Source of the DNA: Candidatus Levyibacteriota bacterium
GTDB lineage: Bacteria; Patescibacteriota; Microgenomatia; Levybacterales; UBA12049
Assembly (NCBI GenBank): GCA_016182225.1
Contig: JACOXV010000018.1
Location: 1-30,197 of the forward strand
Direction of reading: 5' to 3'
Length of the DNA stretch: 30,197 nt
In this document: one piece after another, positions 92-30,197 of the stretch
How positions within the stretch are numbered: the stretch's first letter is position 1
Layout of the letters: each line of letters opens with the position of its first letter
Notes under the pieces: model-generated
What the model saw: only the letters and a program-made list of their open reading frames with translations
Databases searched by the model: none
What the model was told of the DNA's origin: nothing
Position numbers and translations under genes: made by a program

Positions 92-251
92 TTATCCTAT
101 TGGTAGGATTAAGCGAATCTGCGGGTGTGAAAAGTGTCGCAAAATGTTGTGAAAACAGTGCCTCGAGGCTAAAAATTACCGAATTATGTCCTATAATAAA
201 ATTACGTTACAATATATCAAACCACATCACCTTCAATATTATCAAACTATA

Positions 252-899
252 TCATCCGAGGCAAAACCTCTCCTCTACCCTAACCCCTGACACTAAATTT
301 TCTTGCCTCACTTTAAGATAAAAATGTCTACATTTTGCTTCAAAATCTCTCGCGTTTAGTTCTGAGGGAGAATTATTCCATTGACTATATGCTGCTTCCC
401 CTTCTAAACCTAGCAACTGGCAGTCTCTCTTTACAGAATCTGGATCATCCATGAGTTGCCTTAAATGTCTAGATTCATGTGCCATAAGAGCTCGAGGAGG
501 AATATAGTTAGAGGGCAACCTGGCTTCCTCTCCCCTATATGCTGTTATTATATCATCCATATAATCAGGTGCTATTCTTATTAGACCATATCCGTCCTTG
601 CGCAAGCTTGCAGTTGCCAATATTGTTGCTTCTCCGCGCCGGTTTGGGTCTTCCTGCTCCCAAGGATAAAGAAGTTCAACATAGGGAATTTTCACCTCAA
701 GCATTTTGCTTGCATCAAGTAATCCTTCTGTTAATTCAATTATTAGAGCATCTACGGCTATATCTTCTGTTCCATTTCTCCTTCTAACTCGATCAAGCTG
801 TAAACCAATATCTATAGTCATCGACATCTCGTGGAATCTTTCCCTACTCCACCCCATCATCCTAGTAGAAAAATCTCTAATTTCTGTTTCGCTAATCAT
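252..899 (-). CDS. Hypothetical zincin-like metallopeptidase-domain protein
   Basis: 215-aa ORF with HEXXH (HESRH) and a downstream E..A (SELNA); sigma70-like promoter directly upstream. Confidence 0.65.
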   Translation of the reverse strand: MISETEIRDFSTRMMGWSRERFHEMSMTIDIGLQLDRVRRRNGTEDIAVDALIIELTEGLLDASKMLEVKIPYVELLYPWEQEDPNRRGEATILATASLRKDGYGLIRIAPDYMDDIITAYRGEEARLPSNYIPPRALMAHESRHLRQLMDDPDSVKRDCQLLGLEGEAAYSQWNNSPSELNARDFEAKCRHFYLKVRQENLVSGVRVEERFCLG

Positions 900-908
900 A
901 AAAGTGAG

Positions 909-937
909 ATTTTATAACACACTATTGAAAATTACAA
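909..937 (-). promoter_or_regulatory. Sigma70-like promoter TTGTAA-17-TAAAAT
   Basis: -35 at 937-932, -10 at 914-909, 9 nt before ATG 899. Confidence 0.55.
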
Positions 938-947
938 TTGGTAATCT

Positions 948-1811
948 TTATGTCCAGGAAGTAAATGCAACTAAAACAGTGAAAACAACTACTGCAACCC
1001 AAATGTATTCCCATAAAACTCCCTTAAACAACCTTTTCTCAAACCATACGTGAGAAAGCCCAACGATTATATAGAAAAACCCTGCTAAAAATAAGGCTAT
1101 CATTGTTGGATTTGATGGCCAAAACCAAAGAAGGAGCGTAATCTCTGAGAGACAAAGCGTAAGCAATAATCCCCAAACAAAATCTTCTTTTATTCCCCTA
1201 TCCAGAGTATACGTCCATATCGACTGAAGTATAAGAGGTAAAGAAAATATCGCTAAAAAGAGAATTGTGAGTATTACATTTAAATGGAGGGTAAAAATTA
1301 CATTGGTTAAAAAAAAGAAGGATATTAGAGTTATCACAAAAGATACTGTTCGCGCGCTCGAAAGCAGAGCTATAGTTCTTATTGAAGACACAACGAAGAT
1401 ATTTTGGCTTAAAAATAGCGAGTAAATTCCAACCGCATAAAGTGAGGTCATGAAAATTCTTGCGAGAAATCTCGCAGGTACCAAAAGATAAAAAAGACCG
1501 AATGAAATTGTAAATAAAAATGGGAGTATAAATATTTGAAGAGAAAAATTATCTCTTAAATCGTTTCTTAACGCCCATAACAGAAAAAGATCTGCGAGTA
1601 CTGACAAGAATAAGACGATGTAAATTGCCTGCTTACCCAATAACAACTCTGATATAAAAAGTAAGATTGATAAAGACATTACTCCGACTGCAAACTTTTG
1701 TCTTTTTGTTATATTTATCTTTTTTTTCTTTTTTCCAAAAATACTGCTAATATTCTCAATCAATGTATAAGAGAAACTATTCAATATTTGAGTAAACTTT
1801 TTGAACATCAT
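948..1811 (-). CDS. Polytopic membrane protein of unknown function (tentatively DUF5656-like)
   Basis: 287 aa, about 8-9 hydrophobic segments; start uncertain because it overlaps the yebC end by 35 bp. Confidence 0.75.
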   Translation of the reverse strand: MMFKKFTQILNSFSYTLIENISSIFGKKKKKINITKRQKFAVGVMSLSILLFISELLLGKQAIYIVLFLSVLADLFLLWALRNDLRDNFSLQIFILPFLFTISFGLFYLLVPARFLARIFMTSLYAVGIYSLFLSQNIFVVSSIRTIALLSSARTVSFVITLISFFFLTNVIFTLHLNVILTILFLAIFSLPLILQSIWTYTLDRGIKEDFVWGLLLTLCLSEITLLLWFWPSNPTMIALFLAGFFYIIVGLSHVWFEKRLFKGVLWEYIWVAVVVFTVLVAFTSWT

Positions 1812-2496
1812 CCATTTCCTCCAATGCGGAAAGAAAATTTACAATTTTTTCTTCTTGGTCAACTGATAGAACAACTTTTGAAATAGGCTTTCTACTTATT
1901 TCCGAAGAAACTATCAAAAACCCTTGACTCTCTAAGCCTTTTTTAATACCATCTAGCAACGAGGTTTCTGTGTATATGACTGCTTCGTCCCCTGCATCTT
2001 CCACATCAGATGCTCCCAAATCAGCTGCCGATAGAAAAATTTCATCAATAGATTTACCATTCTTATGAATAACAATTTCTCCGGTCTGCTTAAATTGATA
2101 ACTTACAGCCCCAGGCTGGGCAAAATTAGCGCCGCTTTTATTGAAAAGGCTTTTAACTTCTGACGTTGTTCTATTAGTATTATCGGTAACTGCCTCTACT
2201 ATCACACTAACTCCTCCGGGAGCGAATCCTTCGTATATTACCTCCTGGAGCTCTCCTTCTCCTTTGTTGCTGGCACGTTGTATTGCCCTTTCTATATTGT
2301 CTTTAGGCATATTTGCTGATCTTGCCATTTCAACAGCGAGACGAAGTCTTGGGTTTTGATCCGGATCCCCCACTCCTCCACCCTGCTTAACGGCGATCGT
2401 TATCGCATTTGAAATTTTGGTGAATGTTGCGCCTCTTTTTATATCTGCAGCACCTTTTTGTCTCTTAATTGTTGACCATTTTGAATGTCCACTCAT
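1777..2496 (-). CDS. yebC: YebC/PmpR family protein
   Basis: N-terminus MSGHSKWSTIKRQK, NPRLR, YEGFAPGG, DDVQKVYSN. Confidence 0.97.
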   Translation of the reverse strand: MSGHSKWSTIKRQKGAADIKRGATFTKISNAITIAVKQGGGVGDPDQNPRLRLAVEMARSANMPKDNIERAIQRASNKGEGELQEVIYEGFAPGGVSVIVEAVTDNTNRTTSEVKSLFNKSGANFAQPGAVSYQFKQTGEIVIHKNGKSIDEIFLSAADLGASDVEDAGDEAVIYTETSLLDGIKKGLESQGFLIVSSEISRKPISKVVLSVDQEEKIVNFLSALEEMDDVQKVYSNIE

Positions 2497-2504
2497 AGCT
2501 TTAT

Positions 2505-2550
2505 ATTCTACACAATCTAGCTTGACTTTTGCAATAAAGCGTAGTAAAAT
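2505..2550. promoter_or_regulatory. Overlapping divergent sigma70 promoters (yebC / TPR gene)
   Basis: Plus: TTGACT 2522-2527, 17 nt, TAAAAT 2545-2550. Minus: TTGCAA 2534-2529, 18 nt, TAGAAT 2510-2505, 8 nt before the yebC ATG. Confidence 0.7.
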
Positions 2551-2579
2551 TTTTTCTCAGATTTCACTTAAATTCCTCG

Positions 2580-3281
2580 ATGTCACTTTTAAAAAACCAA
2601 GCAATTCAAACCGCCCTCACCGGAGACTGGAATACCGCAATAGAATTAAATCAATCTCTACTGAAAGAAGACCCAAACGACACTGAAGCGCTTAATAGAA
2701 TGGCTCTTGCATATACGGTTCTTGGTAAAATAAATGACGCAAAAAAAACATATCAAAGGGTCTTAGAGATAGATCCGCTCAATCCGATTGCGCTTCGAAA
2801 CATTAAAAGACTCAAAGATGATGGCTCCGCAAAAGATGGACCCCAGGAAGTTCTAGTTAAAAATATCTTTATTGAAGAAACTGGAAAAACTAAAGTTATT
2901 GACCTTATTAACATAGCTCAAGCTGAAATTATCTCAAAATTAAGAACAGGACAATCTATAGACCTCTCAATTAAAAGACTTAAAATATTTGTTCTTGGAA
3001 ACAGTAGCCAGTATATAGGAGTGTTGCCCGATGACATTGCAAGAAGACTTATAAAATTCATGAAAGGGGGGAATAAGTACGAAGCTTACGTTAAATCCGC
3101 AGATCCAAACAAGGTAACGATTTTTATTAGAGAGCTCAAGCGATCGGCAAGATTTAAAGACCAGCCTTCTTTTCTATTTCTTTCTGAAAAAGGACTTTCG
3201 TTTAAGAAAAGCGGCAAAAGAAAAGTCATAATAACAGAAGAGCCTCAAGACGAAGAAGAACCGGAAGAAAGTTCTGAGTGA
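2580..3281 (+). CDS. TPR-repeat protein with C-terminal HIRAN-like domain
   Basis: N-terminal TPR pattern (ALNRMALAY..LG....A...Y..VL..DP.N); C-terminal IGVLP..IA.RL...M.GG..Y.A.V resembles HIRAN; acidic tail. Confidence 0.8.
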   Translation: MSLLKNQAIQTALTGDWNTAIELNQSLLKEDPNDTEALNRMALAYTVLGKINDAKKTYQRVLEIDPLNPIALRNIKRLKDDGSAKDGPQEVLVKNIFIEETGKTKVIDLINIAQAEIISKLRTGQSIDLSIKRLKIFVLGNSSQYIGVLPDDIARRLIKFMKGGNKYEAYVKSADPNKVTIFIRELKRSARFKDQPSFLFLSEKGLSFKKSGKRKVIITEEPQDEEEPEESSE

Positions 3282-3421
3282 CCACTTTTAAATATTATCT
3301 TTCCTTTTAAAAGTTCTTTTTTTGTTTTCTCTATTTCCCTTTTATCCCCTAATTTTTTTAACGAAAAAAACGCCATTAACACAGAAATTATAATTAGTAG
3401 AATAATAATCCAAAAAAACAT
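3245..3421 (-). CDS. Small single-TM membrane protein
   Basis: Likely ATG 3421, 1 nt after the upstream stop (ORF track starts at 3442); N-terminal TM then basic tail; overlaps the TPR gene end convergently by 37 bp. Confidence 0.6.
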   Translation of the reverse strand: MFFWIIILLIIISVLMAFFSLKKLGDKREIEKTKKELLKGKIIFKSGHSELSSGSSSS

Positions 3422-3422
3422 A

Positions 3423-4208
3423 TTAAAATTTTCCAGAATCAATCAAATCTTCTCCAATAGTTATTACGATATCAGATATACCCTTTTCTAGATTCTTCCT
3501 TTTTTCTATATCAAAATACTTTGATATTTTTTTTACTGTATAACCATCTTCTCCAAAATATGAAACAGATGAGTGTTTTTCGTTTTTTTCTGAATTTTTA
3601 AGTAAAACCACATTGCCTCCCATATTGGTAATAAGTCTTCCCATTCTGGTTGCTATCCCCTGCTCTCCAGTAGAATTAACGATTTCTATGCTTACCTTTT
3701 CTTCTTCAATTCGTGGATCTCTGAAAAAATTTTTAATAGTTGAGTCTATTGTTTTTCCATCCCAATCTATATTTATTGTTGTTTTTTTAAGATTTGAAGG
3801 GGCCAACATACTAAGTCTTACTAAATCAATAATCGTTAAATCCGTATCTGTCCTACCGTAGGAAAATAGAACTTTAAGAATAATGTCCTTTGGATTATTG
3901 CCAAGATAATCTTCGCTTTTTATATATGAACTAATCGGAACTGCAAGTTCTTCAGAAAGATTATCTTTATTAATCTCATTGGGCAGTATTCTTACAAATG
4001 CTGCTGTAGAATCATAAGGAGAAATATGTATCACGGATACTCCGTCTTTCTGATCTACGGAAAAGGCATAGGCATTTTTACCATCAAAATTTGACCGTCT
4101 TATTACATCTATTCCCTTAAAAATTAAGGAAATTAATATTAAAAAAATAAGGGCAGAAAGAAAAAGTATTCCCGCCCTAAGAGAACTTTTCTTTTTCTTA
4201 GAACGCAT
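3423..4208 (-). CDS. Membrane-anchored LytR C-terminal domain (LCP-related) protein
   Basis: Basic N-terminus, one TM, C-terminal VSIEIVNSTGEQGIATRMGRLI..MG.....DIVITIGED typical of LytR_C. Confidence 0.8.
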   Translation of the reverse strand: MRSKKKKSSLRAGILFLSALIFLILISLIFKGIDVIRRSNFDGKNAYAFSVDQKDGVSVIHISPYDSTAAFVRILPNEINKDNLSEELAVPISSYIKSEDYLGNNPKDIILKVLFSYGRTDTDLTIIDLVRLSMLAPSNLKKTTINIDWDGKTIDSTIKNFFRDPRIEEEKVSIEIVNSTGEQGIATRMGRLITNMGGNVVLLKNSEKNEKHSSVSYFGEDGYTVKKISKYFDIEKRKNLEKGISDIVITIGEDLIDSGKF

Positions 4209-4215
4209 ATTTTTA

Positions 4216-4353
4216 TTAATAATCCTTTTTCTTTTTAGTTATGATTTCTGGCATGACAAGGACAGAAGGATTGCTTGAAGGGTCAATGCCCTTTCCTGAA
4301 TCTTTTTTAGGTTTCTTCTTTTCTCCTTTATAAAATCCGCCGTATCCCGGCAT
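4216..4353 (-). CDS. 45-aa basic microprotein (not in ORF track)
   Basis: MPGYGGFYKGEKKKPKKDSGKGIDPSSNPSVLVMPEIITKKKKDY; SD AGGAGGTGA 7 nt upstream; fills the gap between neighbours. Confidence 0.7.
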   Translation of the reverse strand: MPGYGGFYKGEKKKPKKDSGKGIDPSSNPSVLVMPEIITKKKKDY

Positions 4354-4360
4354 ACTAAAA

Positions 4361-4369
4361 TCACCTCCT
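4361..4369 (-). promoter_or_regulatory. Extended Shine-Dalgarno AGGAGGTGA
   Basis: Near-full complement of the canonical anti-SD at optimal spacing. Confidence 0.75.
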
Positions 4370-4382
4370 ACTTAATATAATA

Positions 4383-5090
4383 CTAAATTTCATGAATAAT
4401 CTCTTCTAATTCCACAGGCAGCCGGCTTTCGAAAGTTATTCTTTTTTTTGAAACCGGATGAACAAACGATATCTTCTCCGCATGCAAAAAAAGCCTATTA
4501 ACTTTATCACGATCAGATCTGGAAACTTTTCTTCCGCCATACAATATATCCCCAAATATAGGATGGCCGATATATTTCATATGTACTCTTATTTGATGCG
4601 TCCTGCCTGTTTTAGGAAAAACCCTAAGAAAGGAAAACTTTTCCCCCCATAACGATAAATTTTTGATAGTTTCGTAATTGCTTTGAGCTTCTCTTCCCCC
4701 CGCTAATACCCCGAACCTTTTTCGATTCCAAGGAAGTCTTCCAACCGGGGCATTGATTACCCCATCCTTAGGTTTTACTTCTCCATGAACCAAGCAAACA
4801 TAAGACTTTTCAACCGCTCTTTCTTTAAATTGACGCTGAATTCCATAAAATGCCTCTTTATTCTTTGCTACCAAAATAACGCCTGACGTGTCCTTGTCGA
4901 GTCTATGCACTATTCCTCCCCTATTTACGAATTCCTCATCATCATTCTTAGAAAAAGAAGTTTTTTCTGAAACAAAATCCTGCAGAGTGGTTTCATCAGA
5001 AGCTGTATCCGATCTATTTACAGTTAGACCTGGGGGTTTATCCAGTACAAGAATGTCGTCATCTTCAAAAATTATTTTAGGCTCTGTCAT
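4383..5090 (-). CDS. RluA/RluD family pseudouridine synthase
   Basis: HRLDKDTSG (catalytic Asp), GRTHQIRVH, LHAEK; no N-terminal S4 domain. Confidence 0.95.
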   Translation of the reverse strand: MTEPKIIFEDDDILVLDKPPGLTVNRSDTASDETTLQDFVSEKTSFSKNDDEEFVNRGGIVHRLDKDTSGVILVAKNKEAFYGIQRQFKERAVEKSYVCLVHGEVKPKDGVINAPVGRLPWNRKRFGVLAGGREAQSNYETIKNLSLWGEKFSFLRVFPKTGRTHQIRVHMKYIGHPIFGDILYGGRKVSRSDRDKVNRLFLHAEKISFVHPVSKKRITFESRLPVELEEIIHEI

Positions 5091-5770
5091 TTTTTAAGAA
5101 TTCGTGGAAATATTTCCTGACGTAAAAGAAAAAGAAGAGAAACAACAAAAGAACACAAAAGTATCAAGCTCTCGGGAAGTATTAAAAATGAAAGCTTAGA
5201 CATCGCAACTCCCCTACCAAGCAGTAAAATAAAAGAAAAAACGATTAAAAAACTTAATCCCAGCGTTCCTTCTTTTATTTTTAGATTCTTCCCGCTCTGG
5301 ATCAAAAATAAAACTACGATAGAAAATATTCCAAAAAGCGCTACTTCCAAAATTTCTTGCTTATTGAAAGATTGCGTAAGAATAAAATAACCTAGATATC
5401 CAAAGGGGATTGCACAAAGTGTCGAAACAGAAAAAAAATCTAAAATTCTCCCTACAGGCATTTTTTTTCTATAGGTGTAAATAGCAAGAAAAATAAACCC
5501 TCCTAAAATACCACCTGCTAGAGATAAACCGGGAAAATATGGAAAAAGTATAAAAGCCAATGGGTTGATAAAAAGAGATGATGGATTTAACAAAACAAAA
5601 ATAAACCTTGCAGAAAATAGAGCAACTATACCACTTATAAGAGCGAGATTAAAAATCTTCTCAAGCGATATCTCTTTTTTAAGAAAAATGAAATCATCTC
5701 TCGAAAGAAGAAAAAGAGAAAAAAGAAAAACAAAAAAACAAAAGAATAAAGATAATACTATAAATTCCAT
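5087..5770 (-). CDS. Degenerate prolipoprotein diacylglyceryl transferase (Lgt)-like membrane protein
   Basis: ARFIFV, GLSLAGGILGG and GRILDF resemble Lgt, but catalytic His/Arg and the HPSQLYE motif are absent; ATGA overlap with the RluA gene. Confidence 0.6.
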   Translation of the reverse strand: MEFIVLSLFFCFFVFLFSLFLLSRDDFIFLKKEISLEKIFNLALISGIVALFSARFIFVLLNPSSLFINPLAFILFPYFPGLSLAGGILGGFIFLAIYTYRKKMPVGRILDFFSVSTLCAIPFGYLGYFILTQSFNKQEILEVALFGIFSIVVLFLIQSGKNLKIKEGTLGLSFLIVFSFILLLGRGVAMSKLSFLILPESLILLCSFVVSLLFLLRQEIFPRILKK

Positions 5771-25861: not shown

Positions 25862-26604
25862 AACTTGACTATTATTTTTTTCTGACCATCCATTATAACT
25901 TTTTTATAATCTTTAATAAAGCTATTAAAATCTCCCTCTTTTATCATAATCACTGGCGTATCTATATTTTTTTCTTCAAGGTTTTGGAATTCTTCTTCAG
26001 GAATTTCTTGAGCTATGATACCTATCGCACCAACACCCATCGCCTTTGCTACTGCCTCGCGGCTTATTTTTTTCGCCGCAATAATTTTACCTGATATTTT
26101 TATGTCAATCTCCGAAAAGTCAACTTTTTCTCCTAAATTTACGACATCGCCAGAGGCACTTTTACCACAACCTATTTCTCCTAAAATTGCTTCTTTTTCT
26201 ACCTTTATAACTATTTTCTCATCAGACACCTCTATTACTTCCCCATCAACCGGTGAAGTAATTGTCTTTGCTTCTCCACCACCCTCTACTCTTATAATCA
26301 TATCTCCGGATTCTTCATCATATCTGTAAAAGGTGCCGTCTACTTTTGAGATAACTTCTTTTTTTGATAAAAATTCAGATTTTTCAGCTAGAATATCTCC
26401 TTTTCTAACGATATCGCCTGGATTTTTTTTAAGATATTCCTTTGCCTTCTGAGGAGAAACATTTAAGTCTGTAGCTACTTTCGCAAAAGCATCACGATGC
26501 GAATCTTTTTTTTCCGCAAGAACATGGTTTTCTTTAATCTGATCTTTTTCAGAAACTTTTGGAGTAAAACCTTGAGGTAAGTATATAGGCAGACTAGTCA
26601 TCAA
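25858..26604 (-). CDS. Hypothetical protein with tandem barrel-sandwich-hybrid-like motifs
   Basis: 248 aa; two biotinyl/lipoyl-like hairpins (GDIVRKGDILAEK...ISKVDG; ITSPVDGEV); ATGA overlap with the S41 gene. Confidence 0.7.
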   Translation of the reverse strand: MMTSLPIYLPQGFTPKVSEKDQIKENHVLAEKKDSHRDAFAKVATDLNVSPQKAKEYLKKNPGDIVRKGDILAEKSEFLSKKEVISKVDGTFYRYDEESGDMIIRVEGGGEAKTITSPVDGEVIEVSDEKIVIKVEKEAILGEIGCGKSASGDVVNLGEKVDFSEIDIKISGKIIAAKKISREAVAKAMGVGAIGIIAQEIPEEEFQNLEEKNIDTPVIMIKEGDFNSFIKDYKKVIMDGQKKIIVKL

Positions 26605-26612
26605 AAATTATT

Positions 26613-26855
26613 TTATCTAATAATAAATGGCAAAAGAGCCAAATGTCTTGCATATTTTACATTTCTAGCTAAACTTTTTTGGTGTTTTGAGCAAATTCCG
26701 CTTCTGCTTCTTGGAACTATTTTACCTCTTTCGGTAACATATCTTCCAATAATTGCCATATCATGAAAAGATGGATCTTTCTTTTCTGTACAAAAATAGC
26801 AATCTTTCGGAGCAGACGATTTAACTTTTCTTCTAATTTGTTTTGCTTTTGCCAT
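26613..26855 (-). CDS. rpsR: 30S ribosomal protein S18 (Zn-binding type)
   Basis: CYFC, TERGKIVPR, CSKHQ, ARHLALLPF. Confidence 0.97.
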   Translation of the reverse strand: MAKAKQIRRKVKSSAPKDCYFCTEKKDPSFHDMAIIGRYVTERGKIVPRSRSGICSKHQKSLARNVKYARHLALLPFIIR

Positions 26856-26862
26856 GTTTCTT

Positions 26863-26935
26863 GGAAATCCTAAATTCTAAATTCCAAACTCTAAACATTT
26901 TGTTTAGGATTTAGAGATTGGTGTTTAGAGTTTCC
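26863..26935. repeat. Inverted array of degenerate heptamer repeats
   Basis: GGAAA-(TCCTAAA TTCTAAA TTCCAAA CTCTAAA)-CA-TTT-TG-(TTTAGGA TTTAGAG ATTGGTG TTTAGAG)-TTTCC fills almost the whole ssb-rpsR spacer. Confidence 0.85.
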
Positions 26936-27417
26936 TAAAATGGAATATCTTCTGGTGAAACATCTGATTCTTCTCCGGACGCTTCTTTGCTGGGTTCCTT
27001 TTCTTCCTCATCTTTTGATTTTTTCTGGGCTTTCGGAGAAGGTTTTGACTCTTTTGGTTCTACATATTCCTCTTCTCTTCCTTTTTTGCTGTCCAAAAGA
27101 AGCATGTCTGAAATTATAATTTCAGTAGCATTTCTAGGACTTCCGTCTTGGGCATTCCATGTTCTGGTTGCCAGTCTTCCCTCAACGAAAACTTTGCTTC
27201 CTTTGGTGAGAAATTGACTGCAAAGTTCTGCTAATTTATTCCATGCAACTATCCTATGAAACTCTGCTTCATCTTTTTTTTCACCCGTATCAGTTGTCCA
27301 TGATCTATTAGTAGCAAGGCCAAAAGAACAAACAGCAGTACCGTTTGGTGTGTACCTGAGTTCTGGATCTCTTGTTAAATTTCCTATTAATTGCGCTCTA
27401 TTTAAACTTCGTGCCAT
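26935..27417 (-). CDS. ssb: Single-stranded DNA-binding protein
   Basis: LNRAQLIGNLTRDPELRYTP, EGRL, acidic tail ending EDIPF. Confidence 0.98.
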   Translation of the reverse strand: MARSLNRAQLIGNLTRDPELRYTPNGTAVCSFGLATNRSWTTDTGEKKDEAEFHRIVAWNKLAELCSQFLTKGSKVFVEGRLATRTWNAQDGSPRNATEIIISDMLLLDSKKGREEEYVEPKESKPSPKAQKKSKDEEEKEPSKEASGEESDVSPEDIPF

Positions 27418-27440
27418 ATCTATCTTCTACTTTCAATCAT

Positions 27441-27713
27441 CTATTTTCTTAACAGTAGGTGTCTTAATATATTATCATTATTTATAAGATTTTTTTCAAA
27501 GTCCGAAGGAATATTCTCTCCTTCAAACGATAAGGCCAAAAAATATCCCGATACTTCTTTTTTTATCGGGTAAGAGAGGGGTTTTTGTCCCATCTCGTTA
27601 TCTTTCTGAAATTTTACTTTTCCAAGTGCCTCCTTTATAGAATCTACTGTCTTTTTTTTATCGGCATCCTTAAGAGAGGATTTCAAAACTAAAACCAATT
27701 CGTATAATCGCAT
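27441..27713 (-). CDS. rpsF: 30S ribosomal protein S6
   Basis: MRLYELVLVL, G.KPLSYPIKK, ILRHLL; canonical rpsF-ssb-rpsR order. Confidence 0.96.
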   Translation of the reverse strand: MRLYELVLVLKSSLKDADKKKTVDSIKEALGKVKFQKDNEMGQKPLSYPIKKEVSGYFLALSFEGENIPSDFEKNLINNDNILRHLLLRK

Positions 27714-27725
27714 AATTTAGAAGTA

Positions 27726-27754
27726 ATCCTACCATAAAAAGAGGCTAAAAACAA
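27726..27754 (-). promoter_or_regulatory. rpsF operon promoter TTGTTT-17-TAGGAT (extended TG)
   Basis: -35 at 27754-49, -10 at 27731-26, 12 nt before the ATG. Confidence 0.6.
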
Positions 27755-27770
27755 GAAGTAAGAATTTCAA

Positions 27771-27907
27771 ACCTCCCTCATAAACCTACGAAAATTTCGT
27801 AAGCTTATGAGGGCAAGGTAAGAGAAATAGAAAACGCCAAAAGGCGCTGCAGGGATAAAACCTGCATTTAGGCCTTGCCACTCTTTTTATGAGCGGAATC
27901 CGCTCGT
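27771..27907. other. Cluster of four hairpins at the composition boundary
   Basis: CCCTCATAA..TACGAAA-A-TTTCGTA..TTATGAGGG (27775-27813); CGCC/GGCG (27835-46); TGCAGG/CCTGCA (27848-66); GAGCGG/CCGCTC (27891-905). Confidence 0.7.
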
Positions 27908-27916
27908 TGTTAGGCG

Positions 27917-28057
27917 CTAGGCTTCCATATCGTAGTAGTCCAGATCGTGGTTTTCGTCTTCCATGAAGGGCGCAACCGCGATGACAAACGCGAACACCGC
28001 TCCATAGATAGCGCTGACGATTCCGAAGATGATGATAGCGAGCCTTCGATAGTTCAC
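27917..28057 (-). CDS. 46-aa single-TM microprotein (not in ORF track)
   Basis: GGGAGG-5-GTG; MNYRRLAIIIFGIVSAIYGAVFAFVIAVAPFMEDENHDLDYYDMEA. Confidence 0.65.
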   Translation of the reverse strand: MNYRRLAIIIFGIVSAIYGAVFAFVIAVAPFMEDENHDLDYYDMEA

Positions 28058-28134
28058 GACATCCTCCCTAGTTGGACAGTAGCGAGAAGACGATCATCGT
28101 CAAAAACACTACCACCTGGTAGCCTAATCATGAC

Positions 28135-28257
28135 TTATGAATTCTTGCTCCTGCGCAGTCTCGCCACGGCAGAGCCGATGGTCACGAGAGCGATGAGACC
28201 GATGAACGCGATTGCGTCAACGTTCATCGAGAACTCGAGCTGAGACAGACCAAACAA
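28135..28257 (-). CDS. 40-aa single-TM microprotein (not in ORF track)
   Basis: GGAGGAG-6-TTG, 2 nt after the upstream stop; MFGLSQLEFSMNVDAIAFIGLIALVTIGSAVARLRRSKNS. Confidence 0.6.
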   Translation of the reverse strand: MFGLSQLEFSMNVDAIAFIGLIALVTIGSAVARLRRSKNS

Positions 28258-28259
28258 CT

Positions 28260-28502
28260 CTAGCTCCTCCCTCTAGCACTCTTAGACTGGGAAGTTTCCA
28301 ACTCCTGCCGGCGGCGTTCGCTACGATACCCCTCGTACATGAGGAGCAAACCGACAGAAAGAAGAGTTACCCCCAGAATGATTCCCTGTACGATTCCGTG
28401 GTTTGGAAGAGTATTCCATACCAGGGCCAGGGTCACGATGGCGATGGTCAACGCCACCGACAGCGGCGGTCCGTTGAAGACCTCCTCCAAGAACGAGTAC
28501 AT
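28260..28502 (-). CDS. 80-aa two-TM protein
   Basis: GAGGAG SD abutting the upstream stop; two hydrophobic helices and a basic tail. Confidence 0.7.
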   Translation of the reverse strand: MYSFLEEVFNGPPLSVALTIAIVTLALVWNTLPNHGIVQGIILGVTLLSVGLLLMYEGYRSERRRQELETSQSKSARGRS

Positions 28503-28508
28503 CGGGTC

Positions 28509-28637
28509 TTACTCCTCTGTACTCTCAAGCGGCGAATCAGCAGATGTTGAAACCTGCCAATCGTCTGCGAGAGCCGCGAGCACAGCCACAATCGCTATGG
28601 CAAATATGATCGCGACCATGACCCACGATGGAAGCAT
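28509..28637 (-). CDS. 42-aa single-TM microprotein (not in ORF track)
   Basis: GGAGGAGG-4-ATG; MLPSWVMVAIIFAIAIVAVLAALADDWQVSTSADSPLESTEE. Confidence 0.65.
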   Translation of the reverse strand: MLPSWVMVAIIFAIAIVAVLAALADDWQVSTSADSPLESTEE

Positions 28638-28694
28638 GTATCCTCCTCCAGACTAAACCTTGACCGGATTGATTTCGGGATCTACCCGATACGA

Positions 28695-29027
28695 TCAGCC
28701 GATAGGCTTGTCCCTTTGGATTGGGTCAAAGAGCGCCCACTTGAACGCCTTAAAACCCATTCCGATCAAGGTGATAATCAAACACACCAGTAAGATATGC
28801 AGCTCGTTGAGCACTATTCCTTTGGTAAGGAACCACAACGACGCTACGATTATCGGCGTACTGATCAGTAGATAGACGATGAGAGCGAACCATCGAAAGA
28901 TTCGTCTCTCCAGTAGAGATTTTGTCTCTAACCTGTACGGAAACGCCGCAAGAAGGATACCTCCAAGGATCAGAGTTGCCAACGTGGAAAAGACGAGCTT
29001 TTGCAGCGTCATTTCATTACCCGACAT
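28695..29027 (-). CDS. 110-aa three-TM protein
   Basis: AGGAG-6-ATG; three hydrophobic helices. Confidence 0.7.
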   Translation of the reverse strand: MSGNEMTLQKLVFSTLATLILGGILLAAFPYRLETKSLLERRIFRWFALIVYLLISTPIIVASLWFLTKGIVLNELHILLVCLIITLIGMGFKAFKWALFDPIQRDKPIG

Positions 29028-29275
29028 CTTCTTCTCCTATTTTTTCTTTTCTCTTCCCTTGTCAAAGAACCAGACTTCGCTGAAGCTTCGATTGGCAGGA
29101 AACCCGCTGTTTCAAACGCATCTTAGAAATCTGTTCACCCTTCCGAAGCCTTTCGACGTAGGAGGGTCAAAGAACATGTCCCAGAAAGGGCCGTTCATCT
29201 GACAAGTCAGAGTTTTTCGAGTCCGCAATTGGACACGCTACAGCACCCTGGAACCAAACGATTTTATCACTTGAA

Positions 29276-29336
29276 CTTGCCTTTTTAAACCACTTTTTAC
29301 TTAGTCGCGTTCGACGCAATGGTCTAAAAAGGCAAG
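29276..29336. repeat. Inverted repeat, 15-bp arms with 1 mismatch
   Basis: CTTGCCTTTTTAAAC (29276-90) / GTCTAAAAAGGCAAG (29322-36), extendable 2 bp inward. Confidence 0.75.
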
Positions 29337-29363
29337 GCTATCGGTAGAGTTTACGTCCCGGAG

Positions 29364-29455
29364 GGGACAATAAGACTCATTTTTATGAGCCCGCCTTATC
29401 CCTATCATAGGGACAATAAGACTCATTTTTATGAGCCCGCCTTATCCCTATCATA
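29364..29455. repeat. Exact 46-bp tandem duplication
   Basis: GGGACAATAAGACTCATTTTTATGAGCCCGCCTTATCCCTATCATA at 29364-29409 and 29410-29455. Confidence 0.95.
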
Positions 29456-29469
29456 AGACACTCCTTTCT

Positions 29470-29486
29470 TCGGCTTCGTGAGCCGA
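29470..29486 (-). terminator. Hairpin directly after the 142-aa gene
   Basis: TCGGCT/AGCCGA 6-bp stem, 5-nt loop; no U tract on the minus strand. Confidence 0.3.
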
Positions 29487-29488
29487 TA

Positions 29489-29917
29489 TTAGACCCAGAG
29501 AACTGGGTCTTGGAAGATCCACCACGCCATGAAGGCGTAGATAAGAAGACCTATCGCCGTGCCTCCTACTGCGAGTAGCAGATAGAACGCACGATCCTTT
29601 CGATCGACTGCCGCTAGGTATCCTGCCATGGGACTAATCACAAGCATGAATGCGCCGGCGATCACGATCCAAACTCGCAGGTTCAGGTCGAAGTGAACCT
29701 GATCCAAGCTGAAATTCCGGAGGAACGTGAGGAACGCCCAAATTATTCCTGCCACCATGAAGACTGTTCCCGAGACGAATAAGGCCGCCCCAAGAGCAAA
29801 ACGAGCTCTCGACATCGAAGCCCGACGAACCCGCAGAAAAGTGAAGCCGATGATTGAACTGATGGCTGCGATCACGATCATCTCCGCCGGAGAGATACTC
29901 AGCGTTTCTTCAAACAC
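29489..29917 (-). CDS. 142-aa four-TM protein
   Basis: GTG start after a purine-rich leader; four hydrophobic helices. Confidence 0.75.
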   Translation of the reverse strand: MFEETLSISPAEMIVIAAISSIIGFTFLRVRRASMSRARFALGAALFVSGTVFMVAGIIWAFLTFLRNFSLDQVHFDLNLRVWIVIAGAFMLVISPMAGYLAAVDRKDRAFYLLLAVGGTAIGLLIYAFMAWWIFQDPVLWV

Positions 29918-29957
29918 AACCTATTCCCTTTCTCCCGGTTCTACCGAGTGTTCTCGA

Positions 29958-30149
29958 CTATTTGTCAAAGAAGAAATCCAAGACTCTCCCAACGCCTATC
30001 ACGACGACGAAGAGTCCGATCGACGCGAAGATGACGAGTGCGCCGACGTAGAAGTCAGTAACGACGAACTCGTCTGCGAATTGATACCACCAGTATGAGA
30101 CGGCAAGGCAGATTCCGAAAATCGCCAGCCAGGCAAGAAAACTTTTCAC
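29958..30149 (-). CDS. 63-aa two-TM protein
   Basis: AAGGGAG-7-GTG; two hydrophobic helices. Confidence 0.7.
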   Translation of the reverse strand: MKSFLAWLAIFGICLAVSYWWYQFADEFVVTDFYVGALVIFASIGLFVVVIGVGRVLDFFFDK

Positions 30150-30197
30150 AGTGTATCTCCCTTTCTTACTTTTACCGATAGCCTGTCAAAGTGCCAA

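Follow-up and report, generated by a model that had tools for sequence, protein, structure and literature searches.

What is an islet of guanine- and cytosine-rich (GC-rich) DNA, encoding only very small membrane proteins, doing beside the ribosomal protein operon of a Candidatus Levyibacteriota genome, and does it belong there at all? The window analysed here, 30,197 nucleotides (nt) long, is the entire contig C70 of genome G000 (720 kb, 71 contigs, 86% complete), which belongs to an ultra-small groundwater bacterium of the Patescibacteria. The islet, at its right-hand end, contains seven open reading frames (ORFs), all on the minus strand and named here by the length of their products in amino acids (aa): they form two modules, module 1 (o63-o142) and module 2 (o110-o42-o80-o40-o46). 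Taken together, the observations make it rather likely that these modules are two adjacent native cassettes, framed in the manner of ribosomal RNA (rRNA), in which orphan, fast-evolving operons of membrane micro-proteins are expressed via rRNA-type Nus/boxA leaders. Such a frame suggests that the cassette mRNAs are made and handled like rRNA.

The gap of 460 nt separating the two modules (29028-29488), on which the initial annotation had made no remark, contains a conserved rRNA-leader element, composed of two hairpins and two boxA-like sites. When 194 family genomes were searched at the DNA level, about 125 nt of this gap (about 29049-29173) were matched at 73-92% identity in at least seven other genera and in contig C30 of G000 itself, the elements of the other genera being 73-80% identical. 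In five relatives, Rfam shows the leader element flanked by a tRNA on one side and the 23S 5' end on the other, and the Candidatus Levyibacteriota contig L074 features the order tRNA, motif, 23S, 5S: from this placement, the gap element is recognized as the 23S leader of the lineage. The leader features of the two modules are the following.

30184 to 30195, minus strand: module 1 boxA-like site GGCACTTTGACA, whose 5' hairpin lies just beyond the window end (Logan contig L004)
29138 to 29175, minus strand: first boxA-like site GTTCTTTGACC and hairpin 1 (CCCTCC...GGAAGGG), invariant across 8 genera (alignment A3)
29060 to 29096, minus strand: hairpin 2 (boxB-like, with a GAA/GAA internal loop), then the module 2 boxA GGTTCTTTGACA

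In the alignment, the first half of the element consists of a boxA-like GGCTCTTTGAC running into the CCCTCC...GGAAGGG hairpin, the second half of a hairpin, whose CGAAGC-loop-GCGAAG top is invariant, and of GGCTCTTTGACAAG behind it. The module 2 boxA, GTTCTTTGACA (29070-29060), matches 10 of the 11 positions of GYTCTTTAANA, the boxA consensus in gamma-proteobacteria (PMC5725501), while the boxA of the relatives reads GCTCTTTGACA; a leader similar to that of module 1 is found at C30:1613-1636. The lower stem of the boxA-adjacent hairpin covaries: over 20 distinct copies the score is 0.319, compared to 0.107 in shuffles, none of which (0 of 500) reached the observed value, and slid controls stay at or below 0.144. 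At least 4 pair types each are found at pairs 12-33 and 13-32, the former occurring as AU, CG, UG and UA. An Rfam search of 26000-30197 by cmscan, with E values up to 1, returned two chance-level matches only.

The same frame recurs elsewhere in the genome and in its relatives. A pattern joining hairpin and boxA is found four times in the G000 contigs (C70:29060, C30:3491, C29:7571 and C39:9228), each time heading a GC-rich islet, and a further copy lies just upstream of o63. Within the order, it is present in 13 of 245 genomes, and a reversed control pattern in 0 of 245; a degenerate boxA regular expression was too broad to inform. Four more cassettes are located elsewhere in G000 and others in a related genus, whose genome G100 contains five hairpin+boxA sites, and the cargo is unrelated between cassettes. 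Two of them lie on contig C30 (locus L010), where they flank rplL-rplJ: C30-A (240-1640, minus strand) encodes transmembrane (TM) proteins of 157, 82 and 102 aa along with an 80-aa ORF without a TM segment, and C30-B (3360-4250, plus strand) two small proteins, with an HxxxCxxC motif in each. The cassettes at C39:7600-9260 (minus strand) and C29:7571-10250 (plus strand) feature a second leader subtype, with ...CACAARTTGCGGAAAA after boxA, and among the C39 cargo is a protein of 215 aa with a cold-shock domain (Pfam CSD, E 3e-8). In G100, a near-complete relative, four hairpin+boxA leaders are found within 12 kb (G100:C4:209952-222280; loci L055, L066 and L071), heading GC-rich ORFs for signal-peptide proteins or single-TM peptides. 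In locus L065 (G189:C16), at about 1487-1860, hairpin and boxA, with one mismatch, stand a few nt before the start of rpsJ (S10/NusE), an arrangement which recalls the NusE autoregulation proposed in gamma-proteobacteria.

The frame extends to the far end of each module, where the leader finds a pairing partner in the trailer.

30173 to 30184, minus strand: module 1 helix 5' arm AGGCTATCGGTA, with a perfect 12-nt complement at 29335-29346
29335 to 29346, minus strand: module 1 helix 3' arm TACCGATAGCCT
29042 to 29061, minus strand: module 2 helix 5' arm, homologous to the AAGTGAAGAGAA segment of 23S leaders
27814 to 27848, minus strand: terminator-like hairpin (27833-27848) and the T-rich module 2 helix 3' arm (27814-27834)

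Module 1 is predicted to be closed by its leader-trailer helix in both the minimum free energy (MFE) and the centroid folds; for module 2, 29043-29061 is predicted to pair with 27814-27833 in the MFE structure of the 1262-nt RNA, as an interrupted helix of 17 bp. Perfect leader-trailer complements are likewise found in C30-A (14 nt; its sequence is homologous to that of module 1, a compensatory change having turned T-A into A-T), in C30-B (13 nt, of unrelated sequence) and in one G100 cassette (14 nt); in all of these, as in module 1, the complement starts right after boxA. By our own calculation, the chance of meeting a perfect complement to a fixed 12-mer within 1.5 kb is about 1e-4. The true 23S leader of L074 contains the homologous segment after its boxA; complements of 10 nt to it flank the 5S gene on either side, and it thus behaves as a processing-stem arm. 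Since the boxA-adjacent pairing falls behind the last ORF of each module, the islet is divided into two cassettes. Compared to shuffles, the folding z-scores of the cassette RNAs are -5.8 and -7.1, as against -3.6, +0.4 and -1.3 for three host segments.

Within this frame, the cargo bears the marks of coding sequence. Seven co-oriented ORFs of 63, 142, 110, 42, 80, 40 and 46 aa had been reported at 27917-30149; all are present on the minus strand at these sizes. Their TM segments and, where noted, start codons and Shine-Dalgarno (SD) sites are as follows.

29958 to 30149, minus strand: o63, 63 aa, 2 TM segments, GTG start, GGGAG SD
29489 to 29917, minus strand: o142, 142 aa, 4 TM segments, orphan
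28695 to 29027, minus strand: o110, 110 aa, 3 TM segments, AGGAG SD
28509 to 28637, minus strand: o42, 42 aa, 1 TM segment, acidic tail, SD GGAGGAGG
28260 to 28502, minus strand: o80, 80 aa, 2 TM segments, basic tail
28135 to 28257, minus strand: o40, 40 aa, 1 TM segment, TTG start, SD GGGAGGAG
27917 to 28057, minus strand: o46, 46 aa, 1 TM segment, acidic tail, SD GGGAGGA

Most of what the initial annotation had said of them is borne out: one to four hydrophobic segments in every product, gaps as small as 6 nt (o42/o80) and 2 nt (o80/o40), and a strong SD on six of the seven ORFs, with a GGAGG, AGGAG or GGGAG core 3-10 nt upstream of the start. The host is indeed SD-poor, such a core preceding 38 of its 607 long ORFs (6%), in a genome-wide count for which start codons were approximated only. 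The contrast in composition is also real, although smaller than the 20 points or so that had been given: GC is 0.49 over the islet as a whole, ranging from 0.47 to 0.51 within it, and 0.34-0.38 in the flank, a difference of 11-15 points, the rise spanning the last 2.5 kb of the contig, and the difference reaches 40 points at third codon positions (GC3), where islet ORFs have 0.64 and neighbouring host genes 0.24. When the islet was shuffled 1000 times with dinucleotides preserved, the mean number of SD-led ORFs of at least 40 aa was 0.68 and the maximum 4, against 6 observed; those also featuring a TM segment averaged 0.05, with a maximum of 2, and all 6 of the observed ones have one. Codon periodicity is strong (G1 0.34, T2 0.43, GC3 0.64).

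The statement that no family is recognisable among the products was confirmed by Pfam and PHROG searches of all seven proteins, which gave sub-threshold noise only, with no PHROG match below E 0.01 for any of them. No paralogues were found in the same genome by tblastn of the peptides, and the DNA search of the 194 family genomes gave nothing for the islet ORFs. For o142, no homologue was found in 245 genomes of the order, only the protein itself among 5.8e9 protein clusters and, a low-complexity match aside, no credible relative among 1.84e9 representatives; a search of the ESM atlas gave no credible look-alike of o110. Across four samples, the islet contains just 2 single-nucleotide polymorphisms (SNPs), a synonymous one in o142 and a Cys>Phe change in a TM helix of o110. 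As every product is membrane-embedded and fast-evolving, the peptides are, as a guess, most likely fast-evolving components of the envelope or surface. Inside the coding sequence of o110, at its 3' end (28690-28735, minus strand), a boxA-like GCGCTCTTTGACC is followed by GCCTATCGGC, resembling the module 1 leader motifs.

The host genome was searched for NusB, RNase III and Rho. NusB is encoded at C21:5042-5275 and RNase III (rnc) at C21:4621-5010. The two genes are adjacent on the same strand (C21:4621-5275), a pairing that fits a shared role in the handling of boxA and of processing stems.

A working of the cassettes may be proposed by analogy with known rrn operons (PMC10250234, PMC6614797). 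Each cassette opens with the structured hairpin and boxA, copied from the 23S leader of the lineage; once boxA is transcribed, NusB/NusE and other Nus factors would load, giving rise to a termination-resistant complex of the rRNA type, able to carry the polymerase through a structured and probably poorly translated RNA. The leader-trailer helix would then close the ends of the transcript, either protecting them or offering a site to RNase III, and the strong SDs would recruit ribosomes to an mRNA otherwise too structured for an SD-poor organism. Nus binding, antitermination, RNA processing and translation are, in this scheme, expected from the behaviour of rrn operons.

Several points weigh against the two modules being native cassettes of this kind. 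When G-U pairs and mismatches are allowed, generic leader-trailer pairing is not significant compared to shuffles, so that the case for the helices rests on the perfect complements at a fixed position. The rRNA genes of G000 itself are unassembled, and the leader was compared with rRNA leaders of other genera only. The cargo is without relatives, and its variation is limited to the 2 SNPs. A search for sequencing runs containing the locus returned DNA runs only and no RNA runs. GC3-rich codons and SD use are what foreign DNA would also show. Rho was not found in the 86%-complete G000, although 31 of 40 high-quality family genomes have it. Finally, in E. coli suhB, boxA represses expression instead of promoting it (PMC5725501), which makes the sign of the boxA effect in the cassettes uncertain.

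The islet is real, and probably neither viral nor misassembled. An assembly artefact, in which DNA of a GC-rich organism was joined to a contig of the Candidate Phyla Radiation (CPR), would sit well with an islet at a contig end and with a contig breaking at a 30-nt repeat, but it is so improbable as to be nearly negligible. A single-run Logan contig from another sample (L005) extends from o110 through rpsF into ssb with 100% identity to the window, and pieces of 675-1886 nt from four groundwater samples, among the contigs placed on 26800-30197, span 27700-27950 with zero differences, at the depth of the neighbouring rpsF. Independent contigs from four samples thus cross the GC boundary without a mismatch, similar islets lie in the interior of other contigs, and the chimeric join, which had been left as a live alternative, does not survive this identity. 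The contig ends at 30197 because of the repeat: in Logan contig L004, the 30 nt past that position, upstream of o63, have the same hairpin sequence as 29074-29103. More has to be said for foreign DNA, that is, the remnant of a phage, filamentous virus or other mobile element inserted between ychF and rpsF, with nut-like sites hijacking the Nus factors of the host. In relatives, ychF is directly upstream of rpsF with no islet in between, and the cassettes hence occupy a lineage-specific position (in G000, contig C12 breaks off at the 5' end of ychF); GC3 of 0.64 against 0.24 in the host, SD-led ORFs in an SD-poor genome and an orphan cargo would all fit an invader; in two samples, the depth of module 1 falls short of that of module 2, and o63-o142 would be omitted by one weak joint; lambdoid phages are known to use boxA and boxB. 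Nevertheless, this origin appears unlikely. No Zot is encoded in G000, no integrase lies on the islet contig, the only tyrosine recombinases of the genome being on C23 and C35, and PHROG matches are lacking; near the islet no integrase, Rep or Zot was found, the sequence available beyond 30197 amounting to 30 nt of leader. Moreover, the leader is native to the lineage, being its 23S leader down to the variable spacer and the stem arm behind boxA; the hairpin precedes boxA as in rrn leaders, unlike the lambda order, and the frame is reused at at least 4 scattered G000 loci and in another genus, with unrelated cargo which includes a cold-shock-domain protein. A viral, filamentous-phage or mobile-element reading, in line with the virus module that the initial annotation had suggested, is not borne out; of the wider proposal of that annotation, a foreign or fast-evolving operon, the operon-like set of membrane micro-proteins, the lack of any known family and a codon and SD usage unlike the host stand, while foreign origin is weakened by a frame that belongs to the lineage.

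Two further explanations accept the frame and dispute what it does. According to one, boxA has a negative effect, as it does upstream of E. coli suhB: with the Nus complex bound to the leader, translation would be blocked and termination permitted, and the peptides would be repressed, their expression being tied to the status of ribosome synthesis. BoxA-dependent repression of a protein-coding gene is indeed documented, boxA is widespread upstream of translation-related genes (PMC5725501), and hairpin and boxA also precede rpsJ (NusE) in G189; we consider this quite unlikely for the islet, where about 30 nt separate the module 2 boxA from the first SD, and where the leader-trailer helix and the long multi-gene body resemble rrn. 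According to the other, the islet is primarily structured non-coding RNA, for instance copies of an rRNA operon that have decayed, or a large RNA of a new kind, its ORFs being incidental. The rRNA-type leader, the leader-trailer helix, GC-richness in an AT-rich genome and very negative folding scores are hallmarks of stable RNA, and boxA antitermination classically serves untranslated RNA. Against this stand six SD-led, tiled, TM-rich ORFs unmatched in 1000 shuffles and strongly periodic in their codons, the lack of 23S similarity outside the leader and of any Rfam family match, and a cargo wholly different between cassettes, which together render a non-coding role very unlikely.

Other readings were tried and rejected. 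Decayed rRNA was searched for by nhmmer with 23S genes of relatives, which matched the leader only. A sigma-54 promoter reading of GGCAC-N-TTGACA was dropped by eye, the spacing being wrong and the motif being boxA. REP/RAYT or attC readings of the hairpins were dropped because different genera keep these at one and the same place ahead of 23S. An integron cassette array was discarded as well: the ORFs are 2-77 nt apart, there is no recurring imperfect inverted repeat, and tyrosine recombinases are on C23 and C35 only.

Among known systems, the native cassettes proposed here most resemble rRNA operons. The E. coli rrnTAC (boxB-boxA-boxC and an RNase III leader-trailer helix; PMC10250234, PMC6614797) shares with them the hairpin-then-boxA order, and there are further likenesses to the rRNA operon: a helix arm just after boxA that pairs with a trailer beyond the cargo, an RNA body that is rich in GC and highly structured, and NusB and RNase III encoded in the genome. 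The cassette leader is, in addition, directly homologous to the 23S leader of related genera. Unlike in rRNA operons, the cargo consists of SD-led ORFs for membrane micro-proteins, in modules of 0.85 and 1.25 kb. As in suhB and in rpsJ/NusE autoregulation (Baniulyte et al. 2017, PMC5725501), boxA is located in an mRNA 5' untranslated region; those sites differ in being a lone, repressing boxA near the start codon, without the conserved hairpin, the leader-trailer helix and the GC-rich cargo (PMC5725501). Lambda nutL/nutR (boxA-spacer-boxB) and other phage Nus antitermination systems likewise place boxA and a hairpin on nascent RNA for multi-gene read-through, but in the islet the hairpin comes first, there is no N-like protein and no phage gene, and the leader is homologous to a host rRNA leader. 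Integron arrays and inovirus modules are likewise series of short orphan ORFs whose composition departs from that of the host and many of which are membrane-associated; the islet differs from them in having no attC-like sites between ORFs (gaps of 2-6 nt) and no IntI, Zot or Rep, its conserved elements being RNA hairpins and boxA.

Textbooks treat BoxA/Nus antitermination and leader-trailer helices as part of rRNA synthesis; to our knowledge, they are hardly known outside rRNA, phages and a few leaders such as that of suhB. Genes other than those for rRNA are known to have a boxA in E. coli and Salmonella (PMC5725501), and a literature search found no paper on boxA leaders of protein-coding genes in CPR/Patescibacteria. 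In this one 0.7-Mb genome, orphan membrane-peptide genes are repeatedly enclosed by a full rRNA-operon frame, clearly a copy of the 23S leader. If functional, this frame would constitute a second major class of clients for the rRNA transcription machinery, would account for the GC-rich, foreign-looking islets of Patescibacteria that are flagged as horizontal transfer or misassembly, and would point to highly expressed, rapidly changing surface peptides in organisms living attached to other cells. For annotation, composition alone is insufficient for calling such islets viral or chimeric. A more speculative proposal, which we advance only tentatively, is that CPR bacteria possess a dedicated mRNA class, in which envelope micro-protein genes are kept in GC-rich, rRNA-like RNA, transcribed with Nus/boxA and closed by a helix for RNase III processing or stabilisation, the frame acting as a portable socket whose unrelated cargo is swapped or born de novo. 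Such a socket is hinted at by the leader subtypes found in a single genome, by orphan cargo that is unrelated from cassette to cassette, and by one sample in which a variant lacking the cargo may occur.

The remaining features of the islet and its surroundings are listed here.

29364 to 29455, minus strand: perfect 46-nt tandem duplication in the module 1 trailer
29276 to 29336, minus strand: hairpin (arms of 17 nt) behind the module 1 trailer; a similar one follows C30-A
27775 to 27813, minus strand: hairpin (arms of 19 nt) separating the cassette from the rpsF promoter region
26613 to 27713, minus strand: host operon rpsF-ssb-rpsR, directly downstream of the islet on the same strand

A promoter-like site with an extended -10 (29261-29289, minus strand) overlaps the hairpin at 29276-29336, its position being only suggestive; a scan for promoters and terminators gave counts not above those of shuffles. 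Samples X3 and X4 contain one copy of the 46-nt unit (joint 29363>29410), while contigs from X1 and X2 break there: the repeat number is a polymorphism or an assembly ambiguity.

In sample X1, a contig of depth 29.3, with 22 nt on one side, joins 30176 to 29471, so that o63-o142 are skipped or replaced. The depth of module 1 is below that of module 2 both in X1 (39 and 59, respectively) and in X2 (34 and 49). A variant without the o63-o142 cargo may, on this weak indication, be present in X1.

Some GC-rich regions lie apart from the cassettes. Islets of orphan ORFs inside low-GC contigs are found at C51:11450-13000, C61:5700-6800 and C43:1300-2500, without an exact hairpin+boxA match; C61 contains a copy of hairpin 1 at 5463-5495. 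On C35 (1-4089; L012), a GC-rich island (1-2200, GC 0.50) is followed by a tyrosine recombinase (3437-3907) and a tRNA (4018-4089), the hairpin+boxA pattern not being matched on that contig; the island may be a genuine integrated element. Outside the order, the 31-nt hairpin+boxA pattern has exact matches in three Sphingomonadaceae genomes (L082, L075 and L086), with no rRNA gene within the 8 kb surrounding the L082 match.

In two of the relatives, the 16S gene is interrupted after about 1390 nt by an insertion with a LAGLIDADG-like ORF (L052, at G148:C4:1-700, and L074, at 2257-5701), and their 23S gene matches Rfam in two pieces. Close to the islet, at 27143-27247 within ssb, the rpsF/islet contig is reached by two contig paths that share it: the first, of depth 17.6 in X1, is identical to the window, and the other, at depth 46, has 14 differences over 105 nt and then diverges. 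Two genomic backgrounds thus seem to share an identical islet and rpsF.

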